The notes beneath the pieces are model-generated. The model saw only the letters and a list, made by a program, of their open reading frames with translations, was not told the DNA's origin and ran no database searches. 64,000 bases of DNA, taken from UHGV virus genome UHGV-0179803; one strand, 5' to 3'. A program made the translations under genes and the position numbers. Positions 13,940 through 54,560 of this stretch are shown piece by piece. Within the stretch, counting starts at the first letter, position 1. Every line of letters begins with the position of its first letter. The DNA is from a virus.

Positions 13940-13965
13940 ACTTCGTTCTCCTCTTTATGGGACTA

Positions 13966-14049: not shown

Positions 14050-14062
14050 GTGTTGTGAGTGA

Positions 14063-16011: not shown

Positions 16012-16069
16012 CTTCCTCCCTCCAAAAAGATGCACATCCTTGTGCATCATTAGTAAATTACTCATCATC

Positions 16070-18205: not shown

Positions 18206-18227
18206 AGCAAAACTCCTCTAATTTTTA

Positions 18228-18548
18228 TCATTGATAATCTTTTGGATCACCAATGCCGAACTCTTTTTCAGCAATATCTACATCGGTGTCCCGTATTTGA
18301 GCTTCCATCTCTTGTCTGTCAAGTTCTTCCATTATGTTGATGACTTTTCCTTTAAATTCATCAAAATAAACATCATCGCGTAGTCGGTTATCATCTGTGA
18401 GGCCATTGAACCACAACCATCCAACATATTCTGCACGACTACCAAAACCTCTTTCTTCCCATTTTTTACTCATTTTGCCCTCTGTATTATGCTTCAAGTC
18501 CAAACAATTTTTCAAGACGTTTGAAATCGTCAATGTCGAAAGGTTCAT
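18228..18548 (-). CDS. hypothetical protein
   Basis: 106-aa ORF. Confidence 0.35.
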   Translation of the reverse strand: MNLSTLTISNVLKNCLDLKHNTEGKMSKKWEERGFGSRAEYVGWLWFNGLTDDNRLRDDVYFDEFKGKVINIMEELDRQEMEAQIRDTDVDIAEKEFGIGDPKDYQ

Positions 18549-18951
18549 CTTCGCCTATAGACATTTGTTGCTCTTTGTCCTGGCGTTTTGTGTACTTACG
18601 AACGTTCACGCGGTCTTCAACCGGAATATCATACGGCAGATCAGAAACCAGTAATGCATCTTCCGGTACTTCTTCTACGTCAAGAATATCCACACCATGA
18701 TAAATTTCTGGATACAGGAAATCTTTCCGCATTGTGCCAGCGAAGATATCTGCTTTACGATAATGTGTGGTTTTGTTTTTACAACGGACGTTCTTGCCTT
18801 TCATCACATCTATGTTCTTGAGGTCAAAACCTACAGCATAGAGTGCAGCCCGTAGCCCGTTTCTTGTCTTAAGATTAACACCTGGCAACTGTGCCAGAAA
18901 ATCAAGGGTCACAGAGATAAATACTTTCTTAGGTGTCATCATATCGCTCAT
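18487..18951 (-). CDS. hypothetical protein
   Basis: 154-aa ORF; overlaps downstream ORF so one start is mis-set. Confidence 0.4.
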   Translation of the reverse strand: MSDMMTPKKVFISVTLDFLAQLPGVNLKTRNGLRAALYAVGFDLKNIDVMKGKNVRCKNKTTHYRKADIFAGTMRKDFLYPEIYHGVDILDVEEVPEDALLVSDLPYDIPVEDRVNVRKYTKRQDKEQQMSIGEDEPFDIDDFKRLEKLFGLEA

Positions 18952-19057
18952 TTCTGTCTCTCCTTGAAGCCGTCCTTTGGGCGAGACGAACTTCTATTTT
19001 ACACTATATCTTGCGGTTGATCAATTACAAATTATCTATCGTTGGGCAAGGTTTTGC

Positions 19058-19266: not shown

Positions 19267-19869
19267 CTACTCCAGAATAGTATCCATGAAGTCTTCGATA
19301 TCATACCAGTCATCTGCCAAGCAGTCAACCGGATTAGTCAGCTCATAGAACTGTTCGTACGGAGTTTTCATTTTAATCAGGATCGTTTTAGCTGGATCAA
19401 ACTGATTAAAGAACTCATTACGGTCGTCTATCATCACATCACAATTGATGTTACCTTTGAAATGTGTAGCATAGAAACCGTGGCCCTGTGAGTGATCATC
19501 AAGGTCCATGAAATCTTGAGTCCAACGCTTCAGGAAGCGAACTTTTGAAGCCTGATGGCCTTTGTGGCACATTGAGATAAACGCAATCTGATGACCCTGT
19601 TTAACCCATTTCTTAAGAACATCCATTGCATGACCATACGGACGAAGACGATCATACAAGTATGGATCCTCCCAGAAATCTTTAGGTTTCAGCATATGCT
19701 TACTCGGTTCAGGGAAGTATTTACCCAGGTCGTAGAACAATCTACCATTCTTAGGATGCTCTTCTGGCAGAGTGAAATCACCATTCACTCTGTACATCGC
19801 TTCCATCCAGTTCCACCATGCACTATCTGTAGGAACAAGTGTGAGATCAACATCAACGCCGATTAACAT
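19267..19869 (-). CDS. HAD-superfamily phosphatase (putative 5'-deoxynucleotidase)
   Basis: N-terminal IGVDVDLTL (DxDxT motif) and VMIDDRNE; 200 aa. Confidence 0.55.
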   Translation of the reverse strand: MLIGVDVDLTLVPTDSAWWNWMEAMYRVNGDFTLPEEHPKNGRLFYDLGKYFPEPSKHMLKPKDFWEDPYLYDRLRPYGHAMDVLKKWVKQGHQIAFISMCHKGHQASKVRFLKRWTQDFMDLDDHSQGHGFYATHFKGNINCDVMIDDRNEFFNQFDPAKTILIKMKTPYEQFYELTNPVDCLADDWYDIEDFMDTILE

Positions 19870-19873
19870 ACTG

Positions 19874-20932
19874 CTACTCCTTTAAACTGTACACCCAGGG
19901 TTTAAGTATCGTTTTTTCTATCTCTTTTACAGCTTCCTTGACACTACCGTTGTTACTTACAGTATAGTGCTCGGCACAGGTATTTGTCAAGGGTTTTCGT
20001 GAATCGTTTTCCCAGGTACAACCTTGTCTTTCGAGATGTATAACAATAACTCTGAACCCCGCGTCTATAAGGACCTGCGCCTCTTCTTCAAAACCTGAAT
20101 CAGAGCACAACACCAGGTTGCACTTATCTAAACGTATAGAGTTAAGGGTAAACCTACCGAACCAATCTTTTCCGTATTTTGGTTTAACATACTCCTCACT
20201 TAAGAACTTGAACCACTCCCTGTTGGTATATAATTTACCACAAAACTCTATGTGTGGGATCCTCTCTTTGAAATCCCTGTTGTCATAAAAAGTTTCAAGC
20301 CTTTTATACATTTCCTTAGACAACAGTTTGCGGCTCCAGTACCATAAACCTGATTTAAAACTGGCCTTGAAATGGTGCAGCCTGAATGCGTTACATATAA
20401 AATCCTTGCCAGAGCCTGGAGGTCCATTTAGCAATACGACGGTTTTTATCTTAAGAGCATCCTCTGCAAAATCTCTAGCAAAAGCGGCTTCCTCAAAAGT
20501 ATCATAGTTCCCTAGAAATATAGACCTGTTGCTGCCGTCACCTATTCTAGCACACCATTTGCTATTATGTTTGCTAAAAGTTACTCCAGTTTTACCGCTT
20601 GTGTTGTTCGAATACTTATTGCACCGTTTAGCAGCGCTGTTGTTAAATGTTTTACTCGTGCATTCAAGATTCCACACATAGTCCCCTACGTGGACTCCGT
20701 GCTTGTGGTTTATTACCATATCTTCTGACAAGGGATAGTAAAACATTTCCCAGATAATCCTATGCCTTTTATATCTTTTACCATTGTACCAAATTCTCCA
20801 GTAACCCTTTTTTCCCTCTGGGCCTCCTGCAAGATCACCTGCGTTATGACTAAACCTCCCTTTTTTTCCTTCAGTTGCCTCTTTCCAGTACAGCTTGCCT
20901 TTATCATATGTGAAAATATTATTCCAATCCAT
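19874..20932 (-). CDS. HNH-AP2 endonuclease domain fused in frame to dNMP kinase
   Basis: N-terminus: KRHRIIWEMFY...INHKHG (HNH) and NTSGKTGVTFSKHNSKWCARI (AP2). C-terminus: LLNGPPGSGKDF P-loop and VIVIHLER, T4 gp1-like. No in-frame start between domains. Confidence 0.7.
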   Translation of the reverse strand: MDWNNIFTYDKGKLYWKEATEGKKGRFSHNAGDLAGGPEGKKGYWRIWYNGKRYKRHRIIWEMFYYPLSEDMVINHKHGVHVGDYVWNLECTSKTFNNSAAKRCNKYSNNTSGKTGVTFSKHNSKWCARIGDGSNRSIFLGNYDTFEEAAFARDFAEDALKIKTVVLLNGPPGSGKDFICNAFRLHHFKASFKSGLWYWSRKLLSKEMYKRLETFYDNRDFKERIPHIEFCGKLYTNREWFKFLSEEYVKPKYGKDWFGRFTLNSIRLDKCNLVLCSDSGFEEEAQVLIDAGFRVIVIHLERQGCTWENDSRKPLTNTCAEHYTVSNNGSVKEAVKEIEKTILKPWVYSLKE

Positions 20933-21123
20933 AATAATCTCCTACTGTTGAACAACACCAAACCACGATGCTGGAAACATACCGAGGTATCTGTTCATAC
21001 CGTGTGGGAGATATACCAGCACATCGCAACCGACCTGCTCAACCAGGTAGACACAACCGATCTGCAAAGTTTTATCAGCATCTTCTTTGAGGCATTTTGC
21101 TTTTAACATTATCCACTCCTGAG

Positions 21124-22141: not shown

Positions 22142-22372
22142 TTAGTAGAATCGTACGATATCCTGAACTTTGAAGTCTCGATACTCGCCTTTCTCTATGT
22201 CAAAAGCGTGCATCAGATAACAATCTTCAGGATGCCATTCTGTATGTCCGAACCAGATCTGTGGCTCTGTGACTATCCGATCAGAGTATTTACCTTTGTA
22301 GTTACGATAAAGAAATCTTAGTACAACTGCTTCACATGGTTTAAACACGGGTTTCTCTCTGATCTCCGACAT
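22142..22372 (-). CDS. hypothetical protein
   Basis: 76-aa ORF. Confidence 0.35.
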   Translation of the reverse strand: MSEIREKPVFKPCEAVVLRFLYRNYKGKYSDRIVTEPQIWFGHTEWHPEDCYLMHAFDIEKGEYRDFKVQDIVRFY

Positions 22373-22922
22373 AAAAGTCTCTCTCCTCTGTGTACTTAAT
22401 AAATTCCTGCATGTAAGCCTCTATGGCTTCATGTTTGGTTAAGCCTTCAGGTATGTCCAGATTAAGGTCTTTCTTCGCTCTGGCGATGATTGTGGCCTTA
22501 GAACAGCGCCTTAGGAACTTAGTCATGTCATCTCTGTAATTTTTGTGGAACGGGAGATCACTATAGTCATTTTCAAGATAGTCAGCCATCCGGCGCAACG
22601 CCTCTGATAGACTGCAATCTGTGTACTCTGCAACGTATTTCATCCAGTATTTCGTGATATACCCCTCCCAGGTATTCACACACTGTGATAAAACACCTCT
22701 ACAGTGTCCGTCTGCATGGTCATGGTCGAGTACTGGTTTGCGAAGTGGCTCGCCAAGTACAGGATCCAGACCACCCTGTTCCTCAGACATTTCTTCACGT
22801 AAAGCTGCAATTTCTTTTGAATCCTTTAACCACTTGCGCGTTACAGGTGCTTTCACAGCCTTGCGTCTCGCTTTTACCTTGCGCTTCCTGATATCCCCTC
22901 CCACCAACAATAACCTATCCAC
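22341..22922 (-). CDS. HNH endonuclease (endonuclease VII-like)
   Basis: LDHDHADGHCRGVLSQCVN matches Endo VII/HNH signature; real start probably internal (MSEEQGG) as track start overlaps upstream gene. Confidence 0.6.
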   Translation of the reverse strand: MDRLLLVGGDIRKRKVKARRKAVKAPVTRKWLKDSKEIAALREEMSEEQGGLDPVLGEPLRKPVLDHDHADGHCRGVLSQCVNTWEGYITKYWMKYVAEYTDCSLSEALRRMADYLENDYSDLPFHKNYRDDMTKFLRRCSKATIIARAKKDLNLDIPEGLTKHEAIEAYMQEFIKYTEERDFYVGDQRETRV

Positions 22923-23984: not shown

Positions 23985-24257
23985 CTACTGGTCAACCAGC
24001 TTAACCATGCAGTGGCCTTCTTTCCACTTAGAAATCGACTTCTCACCGTTAGAATAGTAGACTTCCAGTTTAGCACGGTTATTTTTGATCTGTATGACTT
24101 TTGCTGTCTCCAGAGCACCATAACCGTAATACACTGCAACAGTATCACCTACGTACACTGCACTGCCACGGTAGTCATGGATGTAATCAGTACCTTCTGA
24201 AACCATACTATCCACCTTATTCGAAGAAGTGAGTTCGAGGACAAGATCCTGCCTCAC
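23985..24257 (-). CDS. hypothetical protein
   Basis: 90-aa ORF, start uncertain. Confidence 0.35.
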   Translation of the reverse strand: MRQDLVLELTSSNKVDSMVSEGTDYIHDYRGSAVYVGDTVAVYYGYGALETAKVIQIKNNRAKLEVYYSNGEKSISKWKEGHCMVKLVDQ

Positions 24258-24482: not shown

Positions 24483-24962
24483 TTAATCTGTAACCACACC
24501 TCCAGCATTACGGAAAACCCTCAGCATTTTTTCAATATCCTCAACCCGCTGATCATAAAGTTTACCAGAACCTGGAGGTGGTGGGAAACTCGCCCAGCGG
24601 CTACGGCATTTATAGATAGCTGAACGGATCCTCCCTTCATAAATGTCATCAAGGGCTTTACATTCACGGATCAGTTGTTTTGCTATAGCATCCTGACTTG
24701 CTGGGCCGAAATCTCTTAAGCCGAGCTGTTTCATATAATGTTTGGCATATTTCTCCAAGATCTGATATCTGCCGAATGCTGATGACGTTAAGCCCGGACG
24801 TAGTTTGACATAAATACCTGGGTGTTTACTAAGATCTTCTATATACCTCCCGCCACACAAGATGTGATACGAAGCAGCTTCGCTACCGTAACGGTCAGTT
24901 CCTTCACTGAACGAAATCAACGAAAAAAATGCTCTCAATTGCTTATCCTTATTTAATTTCAT
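24483..24962 (-). CDS. endolysin (lambda R-like lytic transglycosylase)
   Basis: FFSLISFSEGTD, GRYQIL, QLGLRDFGPASQDAIAKQLI, WASFP closely mirror lambda R; RBS GGAGG. Confidence 0.9.
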   Translation of the reverse strand: MKLNKDKQLRAFFSLISFSEGTDRYGSEAASYHILCGGRYIEDLSKHPGIYVKLRPGLTSSAFGRYQILEKYAKHYMKQLGLRDFGPASQDAIAKQLIRECKALDDIYEGRIRSAIYKCRSRWASFPPPPGSGKLYDQRVEDIEKMLRVFRNAGGVVTD

Positions 24963-25684
24963 TTGAACCTCCGATTAAACCACTCTTCCAACAAACCGTT
25001 ATGCTTTGCATACTCTGCGGATTTTCTGACACATACAGCATCCCACCACTCTGCATATTGCCCTAGGTGATACCTTTTACTATTTTCAGAAATCTGAACT
25101 TGCCACTTTTCAGCATCATGTCTCCATTTAACACCTGTGCACCCCGACGTGTTATTAAGTTTAAGTGTTCTGCCTTTGTAAGTACCTAAAATTAGCTGTT
25201 TTCTTGCCTCTACAGCCTCGTCTTTGGTTCTAAAGTACCCAGCAAAAAGCGCCCCGCCTGTGATAGTGTTATATTCTGCATACCATAAACCGTTCTCACG
25301 TTTCTTATGAACGCCTGCGTGACCGTGTAAATTATTTTTCTGTAGTAAATTATTTCTTATACGATCCTTGTTATTCTCACTATATGTTCCCATAGCAAGA
25401 TTTTCTATATTATCCTGACCTTTTATGTCATTTAAATGCCTGACAAGAAAGTTTTTTGTTAGGGAGTTATAAAACATATCATAAACTATTCTATGACGTT
25501 TCCTCTCACGAACCTCCGAGGATTTAATACCGATGTACCCTTGCCTATCTTTACAACCCGCTTTTGTGCCAGCCTTTATAAAGAGTTGACTTTTGCCTCT
25601 ACCTCTGTAATGATTCTTTGTCCAAATTAGCTCCCCATCTTTGTACCAGAATGGGAAATTATCATTAAAGAAGAAATTAATCAT
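24959..25684 (-). CDS. HNH homing endonuclease with two AP2 domains
   Basis: RKRHRIVYDMFY...VRHLND...DNIENL (HNH); two AP2-like repeats (GVHKKRENGLWYAEY; NTSGCTGVKWRHDAEKWQV); own RBS; ATGA overlap with endolysin start. Confidence 0.85.
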   Translation of the reverse strand: MINFFFNDNFPFWYKDGELIWTKNHYRGRGKSQLFIKAGTKAGCKDRQGYIGIKSSEVRERKRHRIVYDMFYNSLTKNFLVRHLNDIKGQDNIENLAMGTYSENNKDRIRNNLLQKNNLHGHAGVHKKRENGLWYAEYNTITGGALFAGYFRTKDEAVEARKQLILGTYKGRTLKLNNTSGCTGVKWRHDAEKWQVQISENSKRYHLGQYAEWWDAVCVRKSAEYAKHNGLLEEWFNRRFK

Positions 25685-25693
25685 TTGTTCTCC

Positions 25694-26275
25694 TTAACAA
25701 TGTTTATTCCATACCGGAAGTGCGCCTGTCATATTGTAGGCCTCCTCCAGCGTTAACAATCTGCCCCACAGATCCCAACCGCAATCCATCTGCCTGCCGT
25801 AGCACTCTGTCCCAGTACCGTGATCATGCCCATACAGCTGCCTTGCACCGTAGCGTTTCTTGTTCCACGTAGCAAACTGGTAGTGGCTCATGCAGATTAG
25901 ATCTTCAAAGTCTCGACATTCGTAGTAGTCAACCACTTCATGACCAAACTCTTTCATGATTCGCACTGTGGTTTCAGTATCGTGATTCCCTCGGACAAGA
26001 ATAATATGACCGTTCATAATATCCAAAAAGTATTGCAGATCATGTGCAATATCTTTGTCCTTAGCACAACAAATGTCTCCCAGAAGGAACACAGTATCAT
26101 CTGGAGACACTTGATCATTCCACGCAGTGATAATCCCCCTGTGCATGGAGTCCAGATTACCTTTGTACAAACCTCTGTGTTTTTGAGATGAATCAAATTT
26201 CAGGATGTTTTTATGCAATAAGTGCAGGTCTGCTGTTACGAATTTCATTCTTCGGGAACCTCCTCCCCATCCCAC
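25694..26275 (-). CDS. calcineurin-like metallophosphoesterase (Ser/Thr phosphatase-like)
   Basis: motifs DLHL, GDICC, VRGNHD, GHDHG; start probably MKFVTADLH. Confidence 0.8.
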   Translation of the reverse strand: MGWGGGSRRMKFVTADLHLLHKNILKFDSSQKHRGLYKGNLDSMHRGIITAWNDQVSPDDTVFLLGDICCAKDKDIAHDLQYFLDIMNGHIILVRGNHDTETTVRIMKEFGHEVVDYYECRDFEDLICMSHYQFATWNKKRYGARQLYGHDHGTGTECYGRQMDCGWDLWGRLLTLEEAYNMTGALPVWNKHC

Positions 26276-26577
26276 GCTTTATTTTTGAAAAGTACCAGAG
26301 AGTATGCCGGACCAGTCGCATCTTCCTGCACACTGGTGAACACACATAGTTTTTCACCCTCAATTATCTCACAATCTCTGTTCAGAGTCAATGCGAAAAC
26401 ACGATCACTTGCAAAATCATCTGTGCAAAGAATGAAAGCATAATCATTTTCATCGTACAAGCGCCACATCCCTGTGGCTACGATGAACGTCGGCTTAAGC
26501 TGTGTTACACCAACTTTATGCTCGTCTTTGAACACTGCTGCCATGATTGCTAAATCACCGCCATCGATTTTATTCAT
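26245..26577 (-). CDS. hypothetical protein
   Basis: 110-aa ORF. Confidence 0.4.
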   Translation of the reverse strand: MNKIDGGDLAIMAAVFKDEHKVGVTQLKPTFIVATGMWRLYDENDYAFILCTDDFASDRVFALTLNRDCEIIEGEKLCVFTSVQEDATGPAYSLVLFKNKAWDGEEVPEE

Positions 26578-27713
26578 TTTATAATCCCCACCCTACGTAA
26601 AGTAGAAGATAAAGAAGTTTTGTCATTGAAAACACGCTTCATGTAAACAGCATCGAAAATAACGCCCATCCACTGACCAACCGAAATGTCCCGATCAATG
26701 CCGTTGAAGTCGGTGTATTTCACCCGCCCATCTGGGAACCACTCTTTGTACTGCTGGATCGTTGCTTCCCACAGCTCCAGCTCACTCTCGCATACAGACA
26801 ACAACTGGAATGCAGAAGCATCACCGAAGCGGCCTTTAGCAATCAACCCCTGATAAGGTTTGATGTTATCAGCAGTATCCCCACACAACATTTGGTAGTG
26901 GAAGAACATCTGGCCCCAGCCACCAACATCTCCATTCGGCTTCATGAAAATGTGGCCTATAGAGTCATCGATCAGCATCGGTGTTTCACGAACAAAATCG
27001 CCTTTGTCGTTACGCATCGGATCGAACAGCAGACCAGGGGTCTGGCGTTGATCTTTATCAATACTGATCACCAGTTTGTCGAATTTACCTGTCTGTTGGT
27101 AATGTAGCCAACCGGAGTATTGCTGGATTGCCAACCAATCATCAGCTTCCATACCATCGATCACCTGTGCGTTGAAGTGTTCCCGCAGGTATCTACGTGC
27201 ATCCGGTAACATCAGGGGTCGCAACATGTCAGCCCTGTTGGCCTTGTACTGTTCAGGCATAGGGAGATCCAGACGGAAGTTACCTTCCCCACCGAGCACG
27301 CCAATGCATCTTTCAACCGGGATACCCAAGTGGTTGAGCACAGCGTTAGCCTTGCATTTCAGTGTGTGGAGGCAATTCTCAACAGGCTCCGGTGTCTGTA
27401 TATCCAGCACATCAAAATCGTCACGGGTCCAGGGTGTAAACTCTTTACCAGCTTTTTTGCAACGTGCTTCACGGTTAGCATTCTCGGCTTTCAGCCAACC
27501 ACCTACAGCTTTTTTCTGTCTTCCCCAAAACTCTGTTCTAGTTTTGAACTCTTTCTTGCGGCCTGACGCTTTGTGAGTGACCTCAATGGTTCGTTTCTCA
27601 CAGCTTGCAGCAGCTTGATAAGCTACCTGATCAAAGTCGTAGTAGACCTTAGCATCAGGTTCAAGAAGATCTTTTAACTCCTCAATGGAGGTAAGTAATG
27701 GGTAGTCTCTCAA
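26574..27713 (-). CDS. 5'-3' exonuclease / flap endonuclease
   Basis: YKANR, GMEADDWLA, GDTADNIKP match Pol I-type 5' nuclease motifs; TTG start with RBS AGGAGG. Confidence 0.75.
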   Translation of the reverse strand: MRDYPLLTSIEELKDLLEPDAKVYYDFDQVAYQAAASCEKRTIEVTHKASGRKKEFKTRTEFWGRQKKAVGGWLKAENANREARCKKAGKEFTPWTRDDFDVLDIQTPEPVENCLHTLKCKANAVLNHLGIPVERCIGVLGGEGNFRLDLPMPEQYKANRADMLRPLMLPDARRYLREHFNAQVIDGMEADDWLAIQQYSGWLHYQQTGKFDKLVISIDKDQRQTPGLLFDPMRNDKGDFVRETPMLIDDSIGHIFMKPNGDVGGWGQMFFHYQMLCGDTADNIKPYQGLIAKGRFGDASAFQLLSVCESELELWEATIQQYKEWFPDGRVKYTDFNGIDRDISVGQWMGVIFDAVYMKRVFNDKTSLSSTLRRVGIIK

Positions 27714-27725
27714 AGTATCCTCCTG

Positions 27726-28313
27726 TTATTTGCCGCTATAAATTTTATTGAACAGCACATCATCCCCGTTACCGAGCATTTCACCGTAAGCATCACCAAA
27801 CCTTCCAGCAATAGCTTCAAGCGGGTACAGTATTGTTTTATCCAGTTCAACCAAAGCCATACCGTAGCGCTCTGCGTAATGTTTTAGTGCACGGTGCAAT
27901 GAGTCATCATCGTATTGAGATTTCTTAACATCACAAACTTTTCTGATGGCCTGCATATCAAAGAAACCTTTCTGATACCATTGTAGCATCAGTTGTCTGC
28001 GCTCATCAACAATAGTTTCTACCTCATGCAACACCTCATCAAGAGCATAGCCCTCTTTATGTGTGGAGGATTTACCACATTTAATGTAGTTACCATCTTT
28101 GCGTGGGGAAATTGTTTCGTGTTTCTTCTCCTCCTCCTGTGCAGGGGGTTTCAACCACAGGTCGGGGTGTTTACGGTCCTTAATATCAGAGTGATTTCTC
28201 TGATAACCATGTGTCCATGTGAACGTTTTACCAGGAATTTCGTATTTTTTGGCAAGTTCTTCACGATCTTTATCGTCTGTCACTTTCATAGTAGTCTCCA
28301 TGTGCAATTTCAA
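27726..28313 (-). CDS. hypothetical protein
   Basis: 195-aa ORF. Confidence 0.4.
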   Translation of the reverse strand: MKLHMETTMKVTDDKDREELAKKYEIPGKTFTWTHGYQRNHSDIKDRKHPDLWLKPPAQEEEKKHETISPRKDGNYIKCGKSSTHKEGYALDEVLHEVETIVDERRQLMLQWYQKGFFDMQAIRKVCDVKKSQYDDDSLHRALKHYAERYGMALVELDKTILYPLEAIAGRFGDAYGEMLGNGDDVLFNKIYSGK

Positions 28314-28321
28314 CGATCAAA

Positions 28322-28345
28322 GCCAGGGACTAGCCCTGGCGATTG
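28322..28345 (-). terminator. hairpin terminator
   Basis: minus-strand GCCAGGG-CTAG-TCCCTGGC followed by TTTGATCGTTG. Confidence 0.4.
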
Positions 28346-28348
28346 TTG

Positions 28349-29053
28349 TTACAGTTCGTCAACATCTACAAAGCTCGAAGGCTTCATGATCTTTCCTTTT
28401 CCATCAAGGAAGATGAAGCGTTTTTCACCTCTGTAGTATATTTCTGAGCAAGTGAAACCAGTATAACGCCCTTCGAATCGGTTTGTCAACTCTTTTAGCT
28501 CCAAACCTACCAGTGACGGAATATCTACCTGCACAGCAGGGACACCGTGTGCTGCACGAAGGTTCTGCAATGTGGCAAATTTACTGTCGTTTGATTCCAG
28601 AACTTTTTTCATCATACCTTCAGTATCGCCACGGAGCTGGAACAGCAGAGCAGTTGACATACGGCAAAGTTTAGCAACGTTCATCGACTGATGATCACCA
28701 ACCATCGCACGACTTAGGAGATGCATAAACGTTCCAATTTCAAACTTACTTTCTGTGTCACGCTCGAATAATTCCTTCCAGACTAGTGTCTCACGGAGCA
28801 AGTATCCGGCGTAGCTTGTCACTACGAAGAGATCACAAGCCTCTTTCATCAAATGATCAATATCACCTTTGTCAATTGCTTCCAGTACCTCATTGAACTC
28901 TTCTTCTACAAAATTTAGTTGCAGATCCAGAGGTGTAAACTTACCGCCTTTGGCTTGTGTGGCAGCAAGGTTCCATTCCCGTACATGATCAGCGGCCCAT
29001 GTGAAATTATCGCTAAGTGAAAGTTCTTCCAGTTTACGGTACAGTTTAATCAT
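28349..29053 (-). CDS. MazG-like nucleotide pyrophosphohydrolase domain protein (putative)
   Basis: EEEFNEVLEAIDKGDIDHLMKEACDLFVV resembles MazG/HisE EExxE..DL motif; 234 aa. Confidence 0.4.
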   Translation of the reverse strand: MIKLYRKLEELSLSDNFTWAADHVREWNLAATQAKGGKFTPLDLQLNFVEEEFNEVLEAIDKGDIDHLMKEACDLFVVTSYAGYLLRETLVWKELFERDTESKFEIGTFMHLLSRAMVGDHQSMNVAKLCRMSTALLFQLRGDTEGMMKKVLESNDSKFATLQNLRAAHGVPAVQVDIPSLVGLELKELTNRFEGRYTGFTCSEIYYRGEKRFIFLDGKGKIMKPSSFVDVDEL

Positions 29054-29547
29054 TGTTGTGAAGCCCCTTTTCGTTCAAGTTTAGCAATCAATATCCCCAC
29101 CAACACAACCGCAATGCATTTTACCCCAAACTGCATAGCCATAACACCTGGCATAATCTCAAGGAATGCAACCGGACTGAATATTAATGCATCCACAGCA
29201 GCAGTGCAGATATTTACAACCACTATGTTATCTGTGAATCTATAAAGTATGTTGGCAGCACCGCAGCTTGCTACAACAGCTACAAAGCAACCTATCGCGG
29301 CCTGTGTGGCAACAGGAGATACAGCAGCTGTAACCATACCAGCTATTGCCACCATGCTTATAGACCAGAATGCTCCATACTGGTGGATCACGTTGTCACG
29401 CAGAAACATGTTTGCAGCAACACAACAAGAAGTCGTGATCGGGATAACCATCCATCCCCAAACACCAACTGCAATGTTACACAGTGTGAAGATCAGTATG
29501 TATAGTAATGCTTTTTGCAGCATTGGCATCCGATCTATGATCGCCAT
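29050..29547 (-). CDS. integral membrane protein (multi-TM)
   Basis: 165 aa, about five hydrophobic helices. Confidence 0.5.
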   Translation of the reverse strand: MAIIDRMPMLQKALLYILIFTLCNIAVGVWGWMVIPITTSCCVAANMFLRDNVIHQYGAFWSISMVAIAGMVTAAVSPVATQAAIGCFVAVVASCGAANILYRFTDNIVVVNICTAAVDALIFSPVAFLEIMPGVMAMQFGVKCIAVVLVGILIAKLERKGASQQ

Positions 29548-29551
29548 TTGA

Positions 29552-30196
29552 CTACCCCCTTATAAGATCTTCAGCTATCTCTACCCGTCGTGAGACTATC
29601 CTTTGATCATAGTCGAGATAACCATCCTTCACTTTACTCAAGATTCTTTCAGCTTTTAATTTATTTTTAACAGCTATGGCTTCCTCCAATGTGTTACAGC
29701 TTTTGCTTTTACCACGACCATCACGAACTTCATATTTTTTACAAGGAGTTATACGTATACCTGGTGGATAGTCTGAAGCCTTTTTACCTCTCCTGGTCAA
29801 CAACATATTATTTACATCCAAAGGAACAAAACAGCAGGTGTCTCTACTATACTCCTTTCTACCACTCTTATTAAGAATGTCTTTATCTAAAGCATAGTTT
29901 CTACCATACTTATCCTTCATGTGATACCCCGGGGCTGTTTGGCAAAAATCACAAAAATCTTGAAAATCCTTAAAACAATTTTTTACTCCAGCATAAGTGG
30001 GCTTATTTTTCTGGTAAGCCGACCCCAACCTTGTTCTCTGTTTAATATTAAACCATATCATACCTGCTTTTGTTACAACTTTGTAAGATTTATCACCTAC
30101 AACAACTTCAACACAGTGGCACCATGTACCGTCTCTAAATTTAAAGTCAAAATCTAACAAATACCACTCTACAGGTTTTCTATTTCTCTTTTTCAT
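29552..30196 (-). CDS. homing endonuclease-like protein with AP2-like domain (putative)
   Basis: AT-rich ORF between ligase and membrane protein genes; C-terminal GIRITPCKKYEVRDGRGKSKSCNTLEEAIAVKNKL is AP2-like; Cys/His-rich N-terminal half. Confidence 0.45.
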   Translation of the reverse strand: MKKRNRKPVEWYLLDFDFKFRDGTWCHCVEVVVGDKSYKVVTKAGMIWFNIKQRTRLGSAYQKNKPTYAGVKNCFKDFQDFCDFCQTAPGYHMKDKYGRNYALDKDILNKSGRKEYSRDTCCFVPLDVNNMLLTRRGKKASDYPPGIRITPCKKYEVRDGRGKSKSCNTLEEAIAVKNKLKAERILSKVKDGYLDYDQRIVSRRVEIAEDLIRG

Positions 30197-31470
30197 TCTA
30201 AAACCCCCCAGGTAATTGGGTCTACATCCCGTGTTGCTATACCTGTAGGGAAACTGGGTATACCATCTTCTGTGAGAGCCTGGTACTTAAACGTAATAAA
30301 TTTTCCTTTCAGGTTAGCCATCCTCCAGTACAACCGTTCACCATGTGTGCCTTTCATTTTACACTTAAATACTTTACCATTTTTTAGCTGGCAAATCAAG
30401 ACACCTTCACCGTTTTTATCCTCTTCAGCACCGATGACTTTGGCCTCATCTGTGTTAAATTTCTTCCATTTCAAAGCGTTACATGAACGTTGACCGTATT
30501 CATATTCACCGCAGAAATTACGCAGTACTGTACCTTCATAACCTTCAGCCATGTAACGGCCTACAGATTCTTCACATTCTTCAACTGTGTGGAACAGTTC
30601 CGGTTCAGCAGTGAAGATGTGGTCAAGATCTTCAATGAAATCTTTGATGCCGAGAAGATCTGCACAACGTCCATGCTCTGTTTCAGGATCCCACCACACT
30701 TTGTTACTTGGAATATCAAAAATGTGGTATTGCAGATCGTAGCTTGAGTAACCACCGTAACGCATGTCATCACGCACAGGTTCGACTTCAACAGGAAACT
30801 CTTCTTTGTTGAAGTTCAGATATGTCTGTTTTCCTGCCTTAATCGCAGCCTGACGACGTTTTATGTCGGCAGCATAGTCTTTATCGATCTCGGCTTGAAT
30901 CTCTTCCTGTGTGCGCCAGCGTTTCGCCAGAGACACTATTTTCTGCAACGGCAGACCATGAATGTAAATCTCACCATCAAAACGGCTGAAGCCTGTGCGG
31001 ATACGGAGCTGTTTCAGCTGTTTGATAATGTCACCTTCGATAGGGTACGATTTGTTACCGCGTGAGATAAACACTGGAGTATCCCCTTCGAAGTTTACCA
31101 GCAGTCGCAGACCATCCAGTTTGTGCGATCCCCAGCACGGTAGAATAAGCGATTTACCACGTTTCAGGTAGTCATGTACCAGCATAGGAATCAGGTTTTC
31201 TTCCACCACAAGGCTGCTTTCGTCTTCAACGTATCCCAGGCGAACTTGCTTCTCCCACTTGCTGGTTGCTTCCAGAACGGCCTGTTGTTCTGGGGTAGTC
31301 TCGTTGGCACGACCTACGTTTTTAGCTTTGCAGATCGTCTCTTTGTACTGCATTTTACCATCTTTCTTGCCGAACTCAACTATTACTTTTTCACCCTCTG
31401 TAAACACTTTCCACTGCTGTACGCTTCCGTCGCGGTTAAGTGCATAGAGGGTTGTTTTTACTTGATTCAT
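30193..31470 (-). CDS. ATP-dependent DNA ligase
   Basis: adenylation motif I SHKLDGLR (KxDG), motif V-like EGTVLR; likely ATG 31470 (MNQVKTT) with RBS AGGAG. Confidence 0.8.
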   Translation of the reverse strand: MNQVKTTLYALNRDGSVQQWKVFTEGEKVIVEFGKKDGKMQYKETICKAKNVGRANETTPEQQAVLEATSKWEKQVRLGYVEDESSLVVEENLIPMLVHDYLKRGKSLILPCWGSHKLDGLRLLVNFEGDTPVFISRGNKSYPIEGDIIKQLKQLRIRTGFSRFDGEIYIHGLPLQKIVSLAKRWRTQEEIQAEIDKDYAADIKRRQAAIKAGKQTYLNFNKEEFPVEVEPVRDDMRYGGYSSYDLQYHIFDIPSNKVWWDPETEHGRCADLLGIKDFIEDLDHIFTAEPELFHTVEECEESVGRYMAEGYEGTVLRNFCGEYEYGQRSCNALKWKKFNTDEAKVIGAEEDKNGEGVLICQLKNGKVFKCKMKGTHGERLYWRMANLKGKFITFKYQALTEDGIPSFPTGIATRDVDPITWGVLE

Positions 31471-32981: not shown

Positions 32982-33455
32982 TTAGTTACCTTTTGCGTAA
33001 TTCTCCAACCACGAAAAATCAGTTTCCCAGACCTTGATCTTGCTTAGTTCTCTCCACTCTTCGAAGCACGCTTCATAATACTCCTGTGCCTGCTGTTCTG
33101 TCAACCAGTTTACGTCAGCAAAATGTTTTCTTGCACGGAGATAAACATCCCTGCCGAGGCAATTGCAGCGGCCAGGATGCACACTCATATGGCAGTCTGG
33201 GCACAATGCGATCAGACCCACACAGGTGATCTTGTGATCTTCGAACAGGTACAACTCGTGGGCTTCCACAGGATGTTTAGGTCCTTTACCACCACAGACT
33301 TCGCATCTGTACTCTGCTTCTTTGTAACAGCGTTTACGGGCTTTATCCCACAAGCCACGACCGATAGCTTCACGTCCTGCTACCCCCCACAGCGGTTTAG
33401 GGATAAGCTGAACGATCAGCATTTTCTCTTCACGCATTTTACGACCGTCTTGCAT
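32982..33455 (-). CDS. Cys/His-rich zinc-binding protein
   Basis: CEVCGG...CPDCH...CNC clusters; first gene after regulatory region, promoter TTGACA/TATGGT at 33527..33500 on minus strand. Confidence 0.45.
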   Translation of the reverse strand: MQDGRKMREEKMLIVQLIPKPLWGVAGREAIGRGLWDKARKRCYKEAEYRCEVCGGKGPKHPVEAHELYLFEDHKITCVGLIALCPDCHMSVHPGRCNCLGRDVYLRARKHFADVNWLTEQQAQEYYEACFEEWRELSKIKVWETDFSWLENYAKGN

Positions 33456-35586: not shown

Positions 35587-35886
35587 ATGATTAGTCAAGA
35601 AACAGTACACGATATGGCACTGGCATTCATCCGTGAGGGGTGTGATGTGTGTTACATACCAAACCCTCGCCATCAGAATGACCCTGAAGACCCATCTATT
35701 TATCTTTCTGTATCTGGCAGAGGAATGGACCATCTTATCTATCTCGGACTGAGTAGTAAGAGAAGGGATGAATATATTGAAAAATACCAGCAGGCAATTG
35801 ATCAGGCAAAAGAAGACGCACATGGTGAACAGATGTACAATTTTATTCCTGGTTTGGACGATTGTAAGGATGGAGGTGCTTTATGA
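35587..35886 (+). CDS. hypothetical protein
   Basis: 100-aa ORF from ATG 35587 (track start 35371 is over-extended); first plus-strand gene of right arm. Confidence 0.4.
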   Translation: MISQETVHDMALAFIREGCDVCYIPNPRHQNDPEDPSIYLSVSGRGMDHLIYLGLSSKRRDEYIEKYQQAIDQAKEDAHGEQMYNFIPGLDDCKDGGAL

Positions 35887-36608
35887 AGAAGGTTTTAGAG
35901 TTTCAATTTGAAATTGCTGAAATAGGTGGAGAAAGACGGAGGCTTGTTAATGCAAGAGATTTGCATAAACAGTTAGGCATTCGTACACGCTTTAGTGACT
36001 GGATTAAAAGGTCATTAATTAATCAAAATTTCTTGCAAGATGTTGATTTTATCGTGGTTCTCAAAAATGAGTATGACGCAAGTAAGTTTGGTGGCATACG
36101 TAAGCAAGAGGAATATTTATGCACTGTTGAGACAGCTAAACACCTTGCTATGATGGCGAAGACACCGAAAGGTAAAGAGGTTCGTAATTACTTTATCGAA
36201 ATTGAAAGAAAGTACCGCGAGTACATGATTGAGCAACGGAGGTTGGCAAGGAAGATGCTTAACATGGAAAGCTCAACAGATATGGTCTGCATAACTGTTT
36301 CGGCGAAGAAAATCGCTAAAGTGCTTGGGATAACCATGTCTGTGTTTGACCTGAATGGATTCTTGAGGACGGATGGTTACAAGCATAAACATTGGTATAA
36401 CGCAACTCTTGCTGGTCAGGAGGTGTGGAATGATTGGGTTATGAAAAGCAAATATGGGGGTCATAGGTTTACAAGCCAGAACAGTATTAACATTGTGCAA
36501 TGCCTGCTTTATGAAAAAGGTATTAGTAAGCTGGAGGATGACATTTGGCAAGAACTTGTTTGGATTGTGTTCATGAAGAATTGGGTTGATTATCTTGCCA
36601 ACAGATGA
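35883..36608 (+). CDS. AntA-like antirepressor-domain protein (putative)
   Basis: N-terminal LVNARDLHKQLGIRTRFSDWIKRSLINQNFLQDVDF resembles AntA/AntB N-terminal domain; ATGA overlap with upstream gene. Confidence 0.55.
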   Translation: MKKVLEFQFEIAEIGGERRRLVNARDLHKQLGIRTRFSDWIKRSLINQNFLQDVDFIVVLKNEYDASKFGGIRKQEEYLCTVETAKHLAMMAKTPKGKEVRNYFIEIERKYREYMIEQRRLARKMLNMESSTDMVCITVSAKKIAKVLGITMSVFDLNGFLRTDGYKHKHWYNATLAGQEVWNDWVMKSKYGGHRFTSQNSINIVQCLLYEKGISKLEDDIWQELVWIVFMKNWVDYLANR

Positions 36609-39102: not shown

Positions 39103-40215
39103 TGGCTAAAATGTATGGCCCATGCTCCCGTAAACAACAAATGATTCTGGAAAATGATGCCGACTTCCTGATCATTGGTGGGGCAGCGGGTTGTTTGTCA
39201 ATGCGACATGAGGTGATGACACCTAACGGGTGGATCAGAATATCGGAATGGGATGGTCAAGATATCCTCCAGTTTGATAAAGAAACTGGTAAGGCCATGT
39301 TTATCCAGCCTGAAGAGTTTGTTAAGCTGGAATGCGACAAACTAACCAGGATTGTGCAGGATGGTATTTGTCAGGAATTATCCGACGAGCACACAGTTCT
39401 GTACGTCCCAGAAGACGGAACAGCTTACGGTACACTTAATTTCGGAGAAGTGGCTGAACAGTATGCTAACGGTGAGTTGGCAATGCGTATGCAGACCACG
39501 TTTGTGAACATGGGTGGTACTGGCCTTGGCATTTCTGACGAAGAGCTGAAAGAAAGGGCAAGATATTACAAATTCACAGATGAGTGGTATAATTGTGATC
39601 GTCGTCAGTTGTTGCAGATCTGGTATGAGATTTACCTGAACGGTAATGATCCCCATGCCTACGTTGTTCCAACGAAAGAACAGGCTGATTTCTTGCAATA
39701 CCTCGGATCATCTTTAGGTTTCAACGCACAGATCTTCTTCGAAGAAGGTTACAAAGTTGTGTTCTCTAATGAACGTGCAGGTACGATTGCTCTTAATAAC
39801 GATGCAACGTTCGAAGAGTTTGAGCCGGAAGATGGTTACAAATATTGTTTTGCTACCACAACAGGCTATTTTATCACCAGACTGGAAAACTGCATTGCAG
39901 TGACTGGTAACAGTGGTAAATCCTTTCTTCTACAGCTTCTCCCACTAAAGATGATAGATGACCCCAACACTTCTGTGGTGATGTTCCGTAGGACAACTCC
40001 ACAACTGGAAGGTGAAGGTGGTCTGTGGCCTAAAGCACTGAGTGTGTATCTGGATCTTCCTGAGTACATGAGGCCGAAATTCAGAGAGAAAGACCATAAG
40101 TTTACTTTTCCATATTATGATGCAAAGACGGGCAAATGGAATAAGAAAAGAGACGGAGCAGTAATCAAATACTGCCATATGGAATACGTCCAAGATAAGC
40201 TGAATCATCAAGGGT
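39102..40215 (+). CDS. terL: terminase large subunit, exon 1 (ATPase domain, includes intein)
   Basis: MAKMYG...DFLIIGGAAG | intein | SGKSFLLQ reconstitutes Walker A GGAAGSGKS; ORF ends at TAA 40215-40217, proposed to be created by the intron. Confidence 0.75.
39192..39911 (+). mobile_element. intein (240 aa) inserted in terminase P-loop
   Basis: begins CLSMRHEV (Cys1, block A), EHTVLYV block B-like, ends YFITRLENCIAVTGN (C-terminal Asn) followed by Ser +1; removal gives contiguous Walker A. Confidence 0.75.
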
Positions 40216-40742
40216 AAACAAACCTGCCCTTCGTGCCTAATTCGGTGAAACTCCTTGACAAAAGGACAATACCGAGCTACGGTTAAAGGATTAGTTGAAA
40301 CCGAGTGTAACGACTATCCCCGATGAGTGTAGGGGAGTAGAATCACAAGCGATTGGTGATCCAAACGGCACGCCAAGGAGGGAAGAGCTAGTCTGTTCCA
40401 CATGGTAACATGTGGCGGGTGTCTTAGCACACCGCGTCGGAGTAGCGATCCGGCGGGACAAAAGTGGAATATACTTTAATATGTTTTGATGAGGGTTAAC
40501 TGGTAGCTCTCGTAAAACCTCCCTAATTGCGGGGAAATCTTTACTATTGACACCACCAACCTATTATGGTAACATAATATTGGCTTCGGAGAAATACCGA
40601 AGGTATGGTAATAGCGTGTTGATTTAGATAATCCGCAGCGAAGCATCCTGATAGGATGTGTGCTCAACGACTATCGCTTACGGGCGTTAGGGCCAAGCGG
40701 CTGGGGAAACCCACAGTCTTTTAAGACTGCCGAAACGGGAGG

Positions 40743-41036
40743 ATGGGAATGTGTAAAACTAAAAAATGTGTAGATTGCCAGAGAGTCCTACCTCTTGAGG
40801 ATTTCTTTTTATCTTCTAAGAGTAATGATGGGTACTCTGGTACATGCAAGGAATGCTATATGTACTACAGAAAGAATGGATCTCGTAGAAACAAGGATAT
40901 GGTTAAGAGAGATGATGCAGCAGCGTTTATTCAAGATTTGCTAGAGAAAGGTGAGCTTTTTGAATGCAAATCTTGTCATAAAAGTATGCTCGCTGACAAT
41001 TTTACACAAAACGTGATTATGGTAGGGTATATCTAG
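40743..41036 (+). CDS. intron-encoded Cys-rich (Zn-ribbon-like) ORF
   Basis: CxxC pairs (CVDCQ, CKEC, CKSCH); directly upstream of HNH ORF in a different frame; may be a separate protein or a frameshifted N-terminal part. Confidence 0.4.
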   Translation: MGMCKTKKCVDCQRVLPLEDFFLSSKSNDGYSGTCKECYMYYRKNGSRRNKDMVKRDDAAAFIQDLLEKGELFECKSCHKSMLADNFTQNVIMVGYI

Positions 41037-41053
41037 TCACGGGCAGGTGTAAA

Positions 41054-41338
41054 ATGTGTGAGAAGTTCTATCAGCTTGAGAAGAAATTTCACATAACAAA
41101 AGACGAATATTTTCGTCTACTCTCAGATCAAGATTATAAATGTGCCATTTGCGGGATATCACTTGATGAGTATAGGTCGCAAGGGTACAGAGATTTCTTT
41201 AGTGTTGATCATGACCATAAGACTGGCGCTGTAAGAGGTTTGCTTTGTGATAAGTGTAACAGAGCTTTAGGTTTTTTCCAGGAGGATGAGGAAACTCTTC
41301 TTAAAGCGGCAGAGTATTTACACACTCATAAGATATAG
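41054..41338 (+). CDS. intron-encoded HNH endonuclease (endonuclease VII-like)
   Basis: CAICG...VDHDHKTGAVRGLLCDKCNRALGFF signature; ORF ends 3 nt after the S element, i.e. sits in intron loop P8. Confidence 0.8.
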   Translation: MCEKFYQLEKKFHITKDEYFRLLSDQDYKCAICGISLDEYRSQGYRDFFSVDHDHKTGAVRGLLCDKCNRALGFFQEDEETLLKAAEYLHTHKI

Positions 41339-41454
41339 TCTGGTCTGCATGGAGACATGCAGCTGCCACATGGTGGCGGGGCAAGAGTAGCGACCTTGCC
41401 CGAACACAAACGACACAGTTCGATTGGGAGCAAATCGACTACCTGATTTCTCGT

Positions 41455-52970: not shown

Positions 52971-53000
52971 TTGACAAAAGTTGGTGTTTTGTGGTATAGT
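52971..53000 (+). promoter_or_regulatory. sigma70-type promoter with extended -10
   Basis: TTGACA 52971-52976, 18-nt spacer, TGGTATAGT 52992-53000. Confidence 0.5.
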
Positions 53001-53033
53001 TCCTTTGTGTTTAAAATTACTAGGAGTTTACAG

Positions 53034-54560
53034 ATGGCTGGAAAATGTTACACTAAAAAAGAATGGCTAACAGCTGTCTTCAAAGAAAACCCTGAGTTTG
53101 AAGAAATGTACGATTACAGTCAAACTGAGTACAAAGGCAGTAGAGAAAAAGTGAGCATTATTTGCAAAAAACATGGTGCGTTTTCTGTAGAAGCAAATGC
53201 TCATAGAAAAGGAGAGGGATGCAAAGAATGCTACCTTGAGCGTAAACGTGGAAACAAGGAAGAATTCGTTGAAAAAGCTAAAGAAGTGCATGGGGTGCGT
53301 TACAACTACTCTAAGGTTGTGTATAAAGACAGAGTGACAAAAGTAGATATCATCTGCCCTGATCACGGAGTGTTCTCACAAAAACCTAGCAAACATTTGA
53401 GAGGACAGGGCTGCCCCCATTGTGCTAACATGGCTCGTGGTAGAAAAAGAAGAAACTCTTTTGAGGAAGTAGTGGAACAGGCCAAAGAGGTCCACAAAGA
53501 TAAATACGTTTACAAAGGTATGTTTTACGATGAAAGGAAGAAAGGTATTCTTAATATTAAATGTTCAAGGTGTGGATCAGAGTTCCAACAACCTGTGAAA
53601 GACCATGTACACCAAAATCATGGGTGTAGACATTGTGCAAAACTAACCTCAAGAGTGGAAGAATCTGTCTTTGACTTCATAAAAACTATCTGCCCAGACG
53701 CGGAGCAGTCTGATCGCACTATCCTGGATGATGGCAAAGAGTTAGATATCTATGTCCCATCAAAGCGTGTGGCGATTGAAGTCAATGGTATCTTCTGGCA
53801 TGGAGACAATCATAAGCCTAGGGATTATCATTACAAAAAATGGTTAGCCTGTAAAGAGAAAGGTATTCGTCTGATCCAGATCACAGATTATGATTGGAAT
53901 AACAACCAAAAAGTGTTTAGCCAGTTGCTGGCTCATGCCTTGGGGTGCAATAGTGAGCGTAAAGTGAATGCTAGGGAATGCGAAGTGGTGCATCTCAAAT
54001 CAACAGAGTGCAAAGAGTTTTACAACGCTTACCACCCACAAGGCCATTCTCCTAACCCAATTAATCTGGCCTTGAAAACGAAAGAAGGGGAAATTGTAGC
54101 GATCATGAGCTTTGGTTATGGTAAAACTACAAGGGGTCAGGCCAGAGCTAACGGTACGACTAAAGCAACATGGGAGTTATCAAGATTTGCATCAAGCTGC
54201 TCTGTTCGTGGTGGGGCATCTCGACTGTTTAAAACGTTCATCAGAGAGAACAATCCAGAAGAGGTTAGCTCATTCAGCATGAATGACTACTTCGCTGGTG
54301 GGGTTTACGAAGTGTTAGGATTTGTTGCGGAGACGTATGGCAAACCAGACTACAGAGTGTTCCATCCGTTCAGCGGGTTACGCCACAAATCATACTGGCA
54401 ACGCCGTAATATCCCGAAACGTTTGAAAGAACTGGGTAAAGAAGAATTAAACTTTGACCCAGAAATTGATCAGCGTACAGAGCGGGAGATAGAGGATTTG
54501 GTTGGTGCTATCCGGTTGTGGGACAGCGGCAAGATCAAATGGGTATGGAAAGCTGAGTAA
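53034..54560 (+). CDS. free-standing nuclease-like protein: Zn-ribbon repeats plus PD-(D/E)xK (Vsr/DUF559-like) domain
   Basis: three repeats of C..HG.F......H..G.GC..C (e.g. ICPDHGVFSQKPSKHLRGQGCPHCA); DIYVPSKRVAIEVNGIFWHG fits D..E.NG..WH nuclease core; own promoter and terminator. Confidence 0.5.
   Translation: MAGKCYTKKEWLTAVFKENPEFEEMYDYSQTEYKGSREKVSIICKKHGAFSVEANAHRKGEGCKECYLERKRGNKEEFVEKAKEVHGVRYNYSKVVYKDRVTKVDIICPDHGVFSQKPSKHLRGQGCPHCANMARGRKRRNSFEEVVEQAKEVHKDKYVYKGMFYDERKKGILNIKCSRCGSEFQQPVKDHVHQNHGCRHCAKLTSRVEESVFDFIKTICPDAEQSDRTILDDGKELDIYVPSKRVAIEVNGIFWHGDNHKPRDYHYKKWLACKEKGIRLIQITDYDWNNNQKVFSQLLAHALGCNSERKVNARECEVVHLKSTECKEFYNAYHPQGHSPNPINLALKTKEGEIVAIMSFGYGKTTRGQARANGTTKATWELSRFASSCSVRGGASRLFKTFIRENNPEEVSSFSMNDYFAGGVYEVLGFVAETYGKPDYRVFHPFSGLRHKSYWQRRNIPKRLKELGKEELNFDPEIDQRTEREIEDLVGAIRLWDSGKIKWVWKAE

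Follow-up and report, generated by a model that had tools for sequence, protein, structure and literature searches.

The 64,000-nucleotide stretch of UHGV virus genome UHGV-0179803 analysed here (the window) raises the question of whether the nuclease-like genes lodged between its conserved genes are selfish elements or resident genes of the phage. In the interval 24483-30196, one such gene (24959..25684, minus strand, 241 aa; here HEG-A) lies between a phosphoesterase gene and an endolysin gene, and another open reading frame (ORF; 29552..30196, minus strand, 214 aa; here ORF 29552) lies between an ATP-dependent DNA ligase gene and a hydrophobic 165-aa ORF (membrane-protein gene). Comparison with related genomes indicates that the interval in all likelihood holds two independent free-standing homing-endonuclease genes, which would spread by classical intronless homing. 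They are among at least six homing-endonuclease-type elements in the window, where ORFs of this type occupy ~8% of the sequence, and the initial annotation of the genome as heavily colonized by selfish elements was largely right.

Positions 1-19000 of the window gave zero matches among cultured phages by megablast, and the cultured phages matched by the window (megablast/blastn) are rV5-like E. coli phages (Vequintavirinae) only, with ~70-77% identity in core genes, so that the source is best placed as an uncultured distant member or neighbour of the Vequintavirinae. Relatives were sought by querying IMG/VR with the ligase, terL, the tail sheath and a small early protein. One metagenome yielded four contigs that are ~90-95% identical to the window, designated L004/16/22/25, L005/17/21/24, L006/15/20 and L007/18/19/23, the labels of each of these four sets standing for one contig. 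L008, also from IMG/VR, is a more distant relative, and L027-L029, found by looking up homologs of ORF 29552, are close relatives from three different sequencing runs.

Insertion sites and flanking alleles of HEG-A and ORF 29552

HEG-A had been described as an HNH gene with a double AP2 domain whose stop overlaps the endolysin start, and this is largely borne out. Its HNH_3 domain exceeds the Pfam cut-off (28.5 bits versus 24.8, E 1.2e-6), it matches phrog_99 'HNH endonuclease' (PHROG, E 2.9e-38), and alignment with seven other HNH_3 proteins identifies H83, N95 and N104 as the invariant His and two Asn of HNH_3. Two AP2-like units are indicated by PHROG matches that fall in two stretches and by a paralogue in the window that aligns to both copies; the Pfam AP2 profile itself reaches 14 bits, below its threshold of 33.3, and a sequence search of solved structures returned no meaningful match to HEG-A. 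Its domains place HEG-A with the I-HmuI/HNH_3-type nucleases, with two probable AP2-like repeats for DNA binding. The gene begins 10 bp downstream of the phosphoesterase stop, and at its other end the stop codon TGA and the endolysin ATG overlap in the sequence ATGA. Of the seven relatives that cover the site, L007 has the gene and the other six (L004-L006 and L027-L029) lack it. Copies ~82% identical in amino acid sequence occur in four E. coli Vequintavirus isolates (EduardKellenberger, YP-6, VB-EcoM-WM and HMD-6), the gene being sporadic there also. Isolate JEP1 has a remnant consisting of the first 66 and last ~240 bases, the HNH region having been deleted, and V18 retains less than JEP1.

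The endolysin allele next to HEG-A differs from that of relatives without the gene. In sliding-window comparison with L004-L006, identity is 90-97% along the upstream flank up to 25684, the HEG-A segment has no counterpart, the endolysin (24484-24962) is 50-75% identical, and past the endolysin stop at 24483 identity suddenly returns to ~95%; the steps are sharp at 24483 and 25684, the exact borders of HEG-A plus endolysin. This endolysin allele (allele A; 24483..24962, minus strand) is the usual partner of HEG-A. The block of HEG-A plus endolysin is 79-83% identical to that of the four Vequintavirus isolates carrying the gene, with flanking core genes at ~69-71%, and the endolysin of the window is only 65% identical to that of MaxBurger, as an isolate that has no HEG-A. 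Upstream of HEG-A lies the ligase gene in the E. coli Vequintavirus carriers and the phosphoesterase gene in the window, and the constant partner of HEG-A is therefore the endolysin. A conserved segment in the endolysin 5' region, GAAGG(A/C)ACAGATAATGG in alleles of the L004/MaxBurger type, is altered in allele A by a 6-bp gap. The endolysins of L027 and L029 are chimeric, with the first ~30 bases of allele B and the remainder of allele A.

ORF 29552 had been noted as an AT-rich, AP2-like ORF between the ligase and a membrane-protein gene, a description upheld by its GC content (36.1%, versus 43.7% for the window), by its start, which overlaps the ligase stop as ATGA, and by an AP2-like match in hhalign. 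Its end lies 4 bp ahead of the start of the membrane-protein gene. The ORF is missing from L004-L007 and from L008, in which the ligase is directly followed by the membrane-protein gene, and an 85-89% identical copy occupies the same junction in L027-L029; a protein 100% identical to ORF 29552 was found on three contigs. In alignment, relatives without the ORF read TTAGAATAAGGAGGGTAGTCAAATGGC at the junction, and the window reads TTAGAATGA, the ORF, and then AAGGGGGTAGTCAAATGGC. The insertion comprises the ORF only, with nothing displaced, and its end recreates the ribosome-binding site (RBS) and spacer 'GGGGGTAGTCAAATG' of the downstream gene. Both HEG-A and ORF 29552 are ORF-only insertions in few-base spacers (4-10 bp) between essential genes, translationally coupled to their neighbours, and both occur in some close relatives and not in others, at a conserved site and with boundaries that match the ORF precisely.

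The ligase 3' end varies together with ORF 29552 over approximately its last 20 codons (30196..30255, minus strand). All four genomes carrying the ORF (the window and L027-L029) have the ligase C-terminus IPSFPTGIA(T/V)RDVDP, L005-L007, which lack the ORF, have PQFP(CG/VA)(I/V)STREL, and L004, which also lacks it, is a chimera. From its sequence, this tract is a candidate for a co-conversion tract or for the target-site region. All four combinations of presence and absence of ORF 29552 and HEG-A, respectively, occur among equally related genomes (both in the window, HEG-A alone in L007, neither in L004-L006, and ORF 29552 alone in L027-L029); therefore, the two genes move independently. A tie to the ligase is also evident at a greater distance. 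Among the 17 homologs of ORF 29552 that were found, those 43-55% identical belong to three other large-phage lineages, in all of which the gene lies just after, or overlaps the end of, an ATP-dependent DNA ligase gene, and the genes downstream of them vary. Distant homologs (23-26% identity) have N-terminal zinc-ribbon repeats (DUF723/DUF4379) and are sited elsewhere.

From these observations, we infer that the proteins act as nucleases, which regions they target and that the genes home. When genomes with and without the gene meet in a mixed infection, an allele lacking it would be cut by the enzyme in or beside the adjacent conserved gene, the region cut being the endolysin 5' part for HEG-A and the ligase 3' end for ORF 29552. 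Recombinational repair from the carrier genome would copy the ORF and co-convert flanking sequence, and each gene would therefore travel with a particular allele of its neighbour. The identity cliffs, the linked flank variants, the chimeric alleles and the stages of decay (the HNH-region deletion of JEP1, a remnant at 320-694 and a frameshifted ORF in the second terL intron, for which see below) fit intronless homing, as does what has been published on ICP1 and T4 (PMC10448857, PMC2988022, PMC2790892).

Several points weigh against this explanation. The linkage of HEG-A to endolysin allele A is not absolute: L028 has allele A without HEG-A, joined straight to the phosphoesterase stop with ~20 bases of the HEG-A 3' end kept, and the concept of a strictly linked cassette of HEG-A and allele A must be softened, as L027-L029 have allele A or chimeras without HEG-A. 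As judged from their sequences, these three alleles match the predicted outcome of gene loss, or of conversion tracts beginning in the endolysin and resolving short of HEG-A. The relatives compared are eight metagenomic contigs, four of which share one sample, and the explanation draws wholly on comparative sequence. The profile and structure searches with ORF 29552, given below, also count against it.

Predicted fold of ORF 29552 and alternative explanations

Alignment of the ORF 29552 family reveals an invariant block, Y101-A-L-D104-K105-D106 ... Y116-S117 ... C121-C122-F123-x-P125 ... N129, kept down to 23% identity and followed by an AP2-like unit. The C-terminal AP2-like assignment is based on hhalign (E 1.5e-4) and on Pfam AP2 matches in two family members; ORF 29552 also matches phrog_953 (E 1.4e-22). 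AlphaFold models have predicted local distance difference test (pLDDT) values of 87 over the full length and 86 for residues 40-140, and in them L-D-K belongs to one strand, C-F-V to another and N129 to the next helix, which together make a β-β-α unit. The domain-only model is a ββα-metal (His-Me) finger, with the restriction endonuclease PacI as the closest structure. PacI belongs to group 20 of the His-Me finger nucleases, in which a Tyr of the inter-strand loop replaces the catalytic His (PMC5714182), and the invariant Y116 of ORF 29552 is placed by the model in the loop corresponding to that of the PacI Tyr; Lys105 occupies the usual position of the catalytic His. Catalytic residues are a point on which the elements of the window differ, the His and two Asn being intact in HEG-A and in a kinase fusion described below and the canonical His being absent from ORF 29552, which is predicted to combine a His-less PacI-like ββα-metal domain with a C-terminal AP2-like domain. 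A related ORF with the motif 'NLDKD' is found in an 835-bp insertion within terL of L016, which is typical territory of homing genes.

That ORF 29552 is no longer, or never was, a nuclease seems unlikely. It would then be an AP2-type DNA-binding protein with a dead His-Me finger, a regulator or a relic, its presence or absence reflecting past mobility or ordinary gain and loss. The substitution of Lys for the canonical catalytic His favours such an explanation, as do the profile searches: ORF 29552 has no hit in Pfam, the Pfam HNH_3 profile matches none of 16 family members, a PDB sequence search and a family profile search found no nuclease among solved structures, and membership in HNH_3 was rejected when hhalign against HNH_3 proteins aligned the AP2 part only. 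The families that carry the PHROG label 'HNH endonuclease' could owe it to domains other than the one in question. In addition, inactivity is suspected for some His-less groups in the His-Me superfamily (PMC5714182), and regulators have been recruited from AP2 domains of homing-endonuclease origin (PMC10448857). However, the invariance of D104-K105-D106, Y116-S117, C121-C122-F123, P125 and N129 down to the most distant homologs argues for selection and not for a relic, the best structural match, PacI, is itself an active His-less enzyme with a loop Tyr (PMC5714182), an ORF that is strictly tied to ligase 3' ends in diverged lineages and is sporadic in distribution behaves as active homing genes do, and a related ORF resides in the terL insertion. 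ORF 29552 is therefore regarded as an endonuclease with a non-canonical His-Me finger that is probably active, an activity that we infer, since the canonical catalytic His is missing.

It is less probable again that the nucleases serve the phage by excluding competitors, degrading host DNA or aiding packaging and recombination, with their mosaic spread being due to ordinary modular recombination. Packaging machines are known to include HNH proteins (as cited in PMC7344957), a carrier genome benefits when such nucleases cause marker exclusion (T4 Seg literature, cited in PMC10448857), and a conserved HNH gene (32982-33455) and an Endo VII gene (22341-22922) of the window behave as core genes. 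Yet independent presence and absence among ~90% identical genomes, and ORF-only insertions in spacers of 4-10 bp, are difficult to reconcile with this proposal, and the decayed copies fit a selfish cycle of gain, spread and decay rather than a required function; moreover, exclusion and homing are two views of one cut-and-repair event, such that the proposal overlaps with homing. The window and most relatives are metagenome assemblies, in which spurious ORFs or chimeric joins might mimic insertions, but the same junctions recur in independent assemblies, in different samples and in cultured phages (HEG-A in L007 and the four isolates, ORF 29552 in the three sequencing runs of L027-L029); therefore, artefact can be excluded with very little doubt, as is also argued by profile E-values down to 1e-38 and by the 100% identical ORF 29552 protein on three contigs. 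Homing by two independent genes remains the best explanation of the interval.

Other nuclease-like genes and insertions of the window

The minus strand of the window to ~35 kb encodes DNA metabolism genes (NrdD, PhoH, exonucleases, ligase, endolysin), and the plus strand beyond ~35 kb encodes terminase, portal, capsid and tail genes. The high density of homing-endonuclease genes that had been proposed for the early arm is indeed found there, but is not confined to it, as terL and a late-arm gene (52971-54560) are also affected. Scoring of presence and absence in the relatives, as the initial annotation had suggested, revealed ORF 29552, HEG-A, the kinase fusion and the terL insertions to be polymorphic.

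The kinase fusion (19874..20932, minus strand, 352 aa) is a paralogue of HEG-A (E 1e-13) in which an HNH_3-AP2 module is joined in frame to a deoxynucleoside monophosphate (dNMP) kinase, with PHROG matches to both phrog_99 (E 9.5e-41) and phrog_139 (E 8.5e-30). The HNH_3 and AP2-like part comprises the N-terminal 155 aa, with the HNH_3 catalytic residues intact, and no plausible internal start with an RBS was found ahead of the kinase part. A block divergent from relatives (19865-20940) coincides with the fusion ORF, which stands where relatives have their resident kinase; the kinase parts are only 28% identical (compared with the kinase of L005). In T1-like phages, an HNH gene immediately precedes a kinase gene of this type. 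A second in-frame fusion of nuclease and host protein exists in the clade. Beside the Endo VII gene, L004, L005 and L007 have a genuinely mobile-type nuclease gene: the homolog of window ORF 22142-22372 is joined in frame, at its N-terminus and after its first six codons, to an HNH_3/AP2 protein of 336-352 aa (MSEIRE; L005 17488-18498, L004 18028-19083, a site equivalent to window ~22234-22354).

The AP2-domain ORF at 320..694 (plus strand) had been listed with the endonuclease genes, and it does derive from one, but without its nuclease domain. Its PHROG matches are weak and confined to the AP2 part of HNH-endonuclease families (E 6.6e-5), its orthologue in L023/L024 is an intact 236-aa HNH_3 plus AP2 protein, and an internal deletion of ~110 aa, common to the window and L025, has removed the HNH domain and left the AP2-like domain and the C-terminus. 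By its sequence, 320-694 is the remnant of a decayed homing-endonuclease gene.

The Endo VII-type gene (22341..22922, minus strand; Pfam Endonuclease_7, E 8.3e-7; phrog_423) had also been counted as a selfish element, an assignment that is rejected: it is syntenic in L004-L007 (~95% identity) and in all E. coli Vequintavirus genomes examined, where it is annotated 'packaging and recombination endonuclease'. Conservation at the same position in every relative examined is what the initial annotation itself had named as evidence to the contrary, and the comparison points to a core packaging and recombination resolvase like T4 gp49. The 157-aa Cys-rich HNH protein encoded at 32982-33455 (phrog_5200, E 1.4e-52) is 58% identical to the product of a syntenic, conserved E. 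coli Vequintavirus gene that bears the annotation 'putative homing endonuclease'; the gene follows the pattern of a core gene, the exception being L006, which has another sequence at the site.

Among the late genes, a homing-endonuclease-like gene between tail genes (52971..54560, plus strand, 529 aa) encodes treble-clef zinc-ribbon repeats with a weak Vsr-like match (phrog_559, E 1.5e-103; phrog_3339 'homing endonuclease', E 1.6e-72; Pfam DUF4379), and the site has non-alignable versions of 641 aa and 550 aa in L019 and L020. An insertion of ~856 bp in the tape-measure gene of L020/L021/L022, encoding an HNH_3 protein (E 3.8e-13), is absent from the window (site at 58103). The ORF at 54702-55844 was considered as a mobile nuclease and rejected: it encodes a tail-fibre-like protein of 380 aa, though it is window-specific and 50% GC. 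The segment 54640-56011 is missing from L021/L022, and 54702-55844 probably represents a cassette for host range, not a selfish nuclease.

The terL gene (39102-42534) has been invaded three times, by one intein candidate and two probable group I introns. The putative intein (39192..39890, plus strand, 233 aa) is an in-frame insertion that splits the Walker A motif as GGAAG|C...TGN|SGKS; the terL of WalterGehring reads uninterrupted GGAAGSGKS, and the insertion is missing from E. coli Vequintavirus terL. Cys at position 1, a terminal Asn and a +1 Ser are present, and the penultimate His is absent. The intein proposed initially therefore stands as regards the in-frame Walker A insertion bounded by Cys and Asn|Ser but lacks profile support, Pfam and PDB searches relaxed to E 10 having returned nothing, and the sequence makes it a probable intein. 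Intron 1 (40216..40464, plus strand, 249 nt) contains no ORF and matches Rfam Intron_gpI with 38.0 bits (E 9e-8), and intron 2 (40497..41412, plus strand, 916 nt) with 47.9 bits (E 9.6e-11), both below the Rfam gathering score of 50 and seen in a relaxed search, none being reported at the gathering threshold. The introns are 32 nt apart, the micro-exon between them consisting of Walker B codons. Both follow U and end in G, and their predicted splicing yields a continuous 755-aa terL product that matches the uninterrupted one of L017.

The relatives cover every state of terL. Neither intron is found in L017 or L016, the latter having a different insertion at 42425; only intron 1 is present in L015, together with an HNH_3-containing insertion at 41730; and L018 has intron 2 without its ORF, intron 1 being missing from L016/L017/L018. 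The ORF of intron 2 (40743-41338) encodes an Endo VII-type HNH protein (Endonuclease_7, E 9e-23) and is split in two by a frameshift near codon 85 in comparison with the intact 196-aa gene of WalterGehring, which is either decay of the gene or an assembly error.

No intein domain was detected in the other large ORFs of the window. The gene at 47246-48670 was rejected as an intein host by Pfam and PHROG searches; it encodes a head-associated protein with an extra domain, a 607-bp in-frame segment (47767-48373) without counterpart in four close relatives, in which no intein or other domain was detected. Several variable segments of other kinds were also observed. A segment of ~190 bp (24004-24190) that makes up most of a 90-aa DUF7205 ORF (23985-24257) is present in the window and missing from L004-L007. 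An AntA/Ant-type anti-repressor-like ORF (35883-36608, 39% GC) is missing from L005/L006 and other ORFs are found instead in L004/L007. Genes for Bro-N, pRha and TnpB (IS605 OrfB) are located at other variable sites of L027-L029. The switch between the transcription arms is marked by the sole tRNA gene there (37900-37972; Rfam, 68 bits).

Relation to known homing systems and significance

The phenomenon itself is established, being a well-documented kind of phage parasite; phage genomes, above all those of the Vequintavirinae, hold many HNH endonuclease genes, both free-standing and within introns, and HNH-AP2 genes are a known family. High loads of homing endonucleases, terL introns and inteins are documented in the Vequintavirinae, among which Pectobacterium phage CB7 has 23 homing endonucleases amounting to ~7% of its genome and a spliced terL intron with an HNH gene (PMC7344957). 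The window resembles CB7 in phage group, in its many free-standing HNH genes and in a terL intron carrying an HNH gene, but it represents an uncultured lineage with other genes and insertion sites, and each of its sites is available in nature both with and without the gene. Homing endonucleases of the HNH-AP2 type, from the I-HmuI/HNH_3 group with AP2, have been described (Magnani et al. 2004, as cited in PMC10448857) and form group 2 of PMC5714182; HEG-A and the N-terminal 155 aa of the kinase fusion share with them the HNH_3 His and two Asn followed by AP2-like domains, and differ in the two AP2-like repeats of HEG-A and in the in-frame fusion of its paralogue to a kinase.

In Vibrio phage ICP1, nuclease genes lie at genetic-exchange boundaries, and AP2-linked, divergent IPA-HNH genes have been described (Barth et al. 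2023, PMC10448857). As in ICP1, identity cliffs between phage genomes coincide here with nuclease genes, and ORF 29552 resembles the IPA-HNH proteins (gp59 and gp209), in a comparison of layout only, by an N-terminal HNH-like domain too divergent for Pfam HNH_3 and a C-terminal AP2 domain; it differs in having Lys at the position of the catalytic His, and tblastn against phages returned no ICP1 record. The free-standing Seg and Mob endonucleases of phage T4 carry out intronless homing with co-conversion of flanking markers (PMC2988022; mobE, PMC2790892). Like them, the genes of the window occupy sites between conserved genes, have a sporadic distribution in the relatives and are co-inherited with adjacent sequence, but they belong to other nuclease families and adjoin other host genes (endolysin, ligase, dNMP kinase), and co-conversion is deduced here from population data, not from crosses.

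Worth following up are the putative His-less, ligase-associated nuclease family and the in-frame fusions of nuclease and host protein. Tentatively, the family of ORF 29552 may constitute a distinct catalytic class of homing endonuclease, in which a His-less PacI-like finger (D-K-D and a loop Tyr) combined with an AP2-like domain would target the 3' ends of phage ligase genes; with its in-frame HNH-AP2 fusions, to the kinase and to the small ORF in L004/L005/L007, the lineage would also possibly exemplify homing nucleases translated as part of the proteins that they invade. The genomes amount to a natural experiment, with near-isogenic phages that carry, lack or have a decayed copy of the gene at several sites, and the chimeric flanking alleles narrow down where conversion tracts start, which would ease the prediction of target sites and homing crosses. 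Such elements would have swapped whole endolysin and dNMP kinase alleles between distantly related phages, and this swapping of alleles matters for understanding mosaicism in candidate therapeutic phages.

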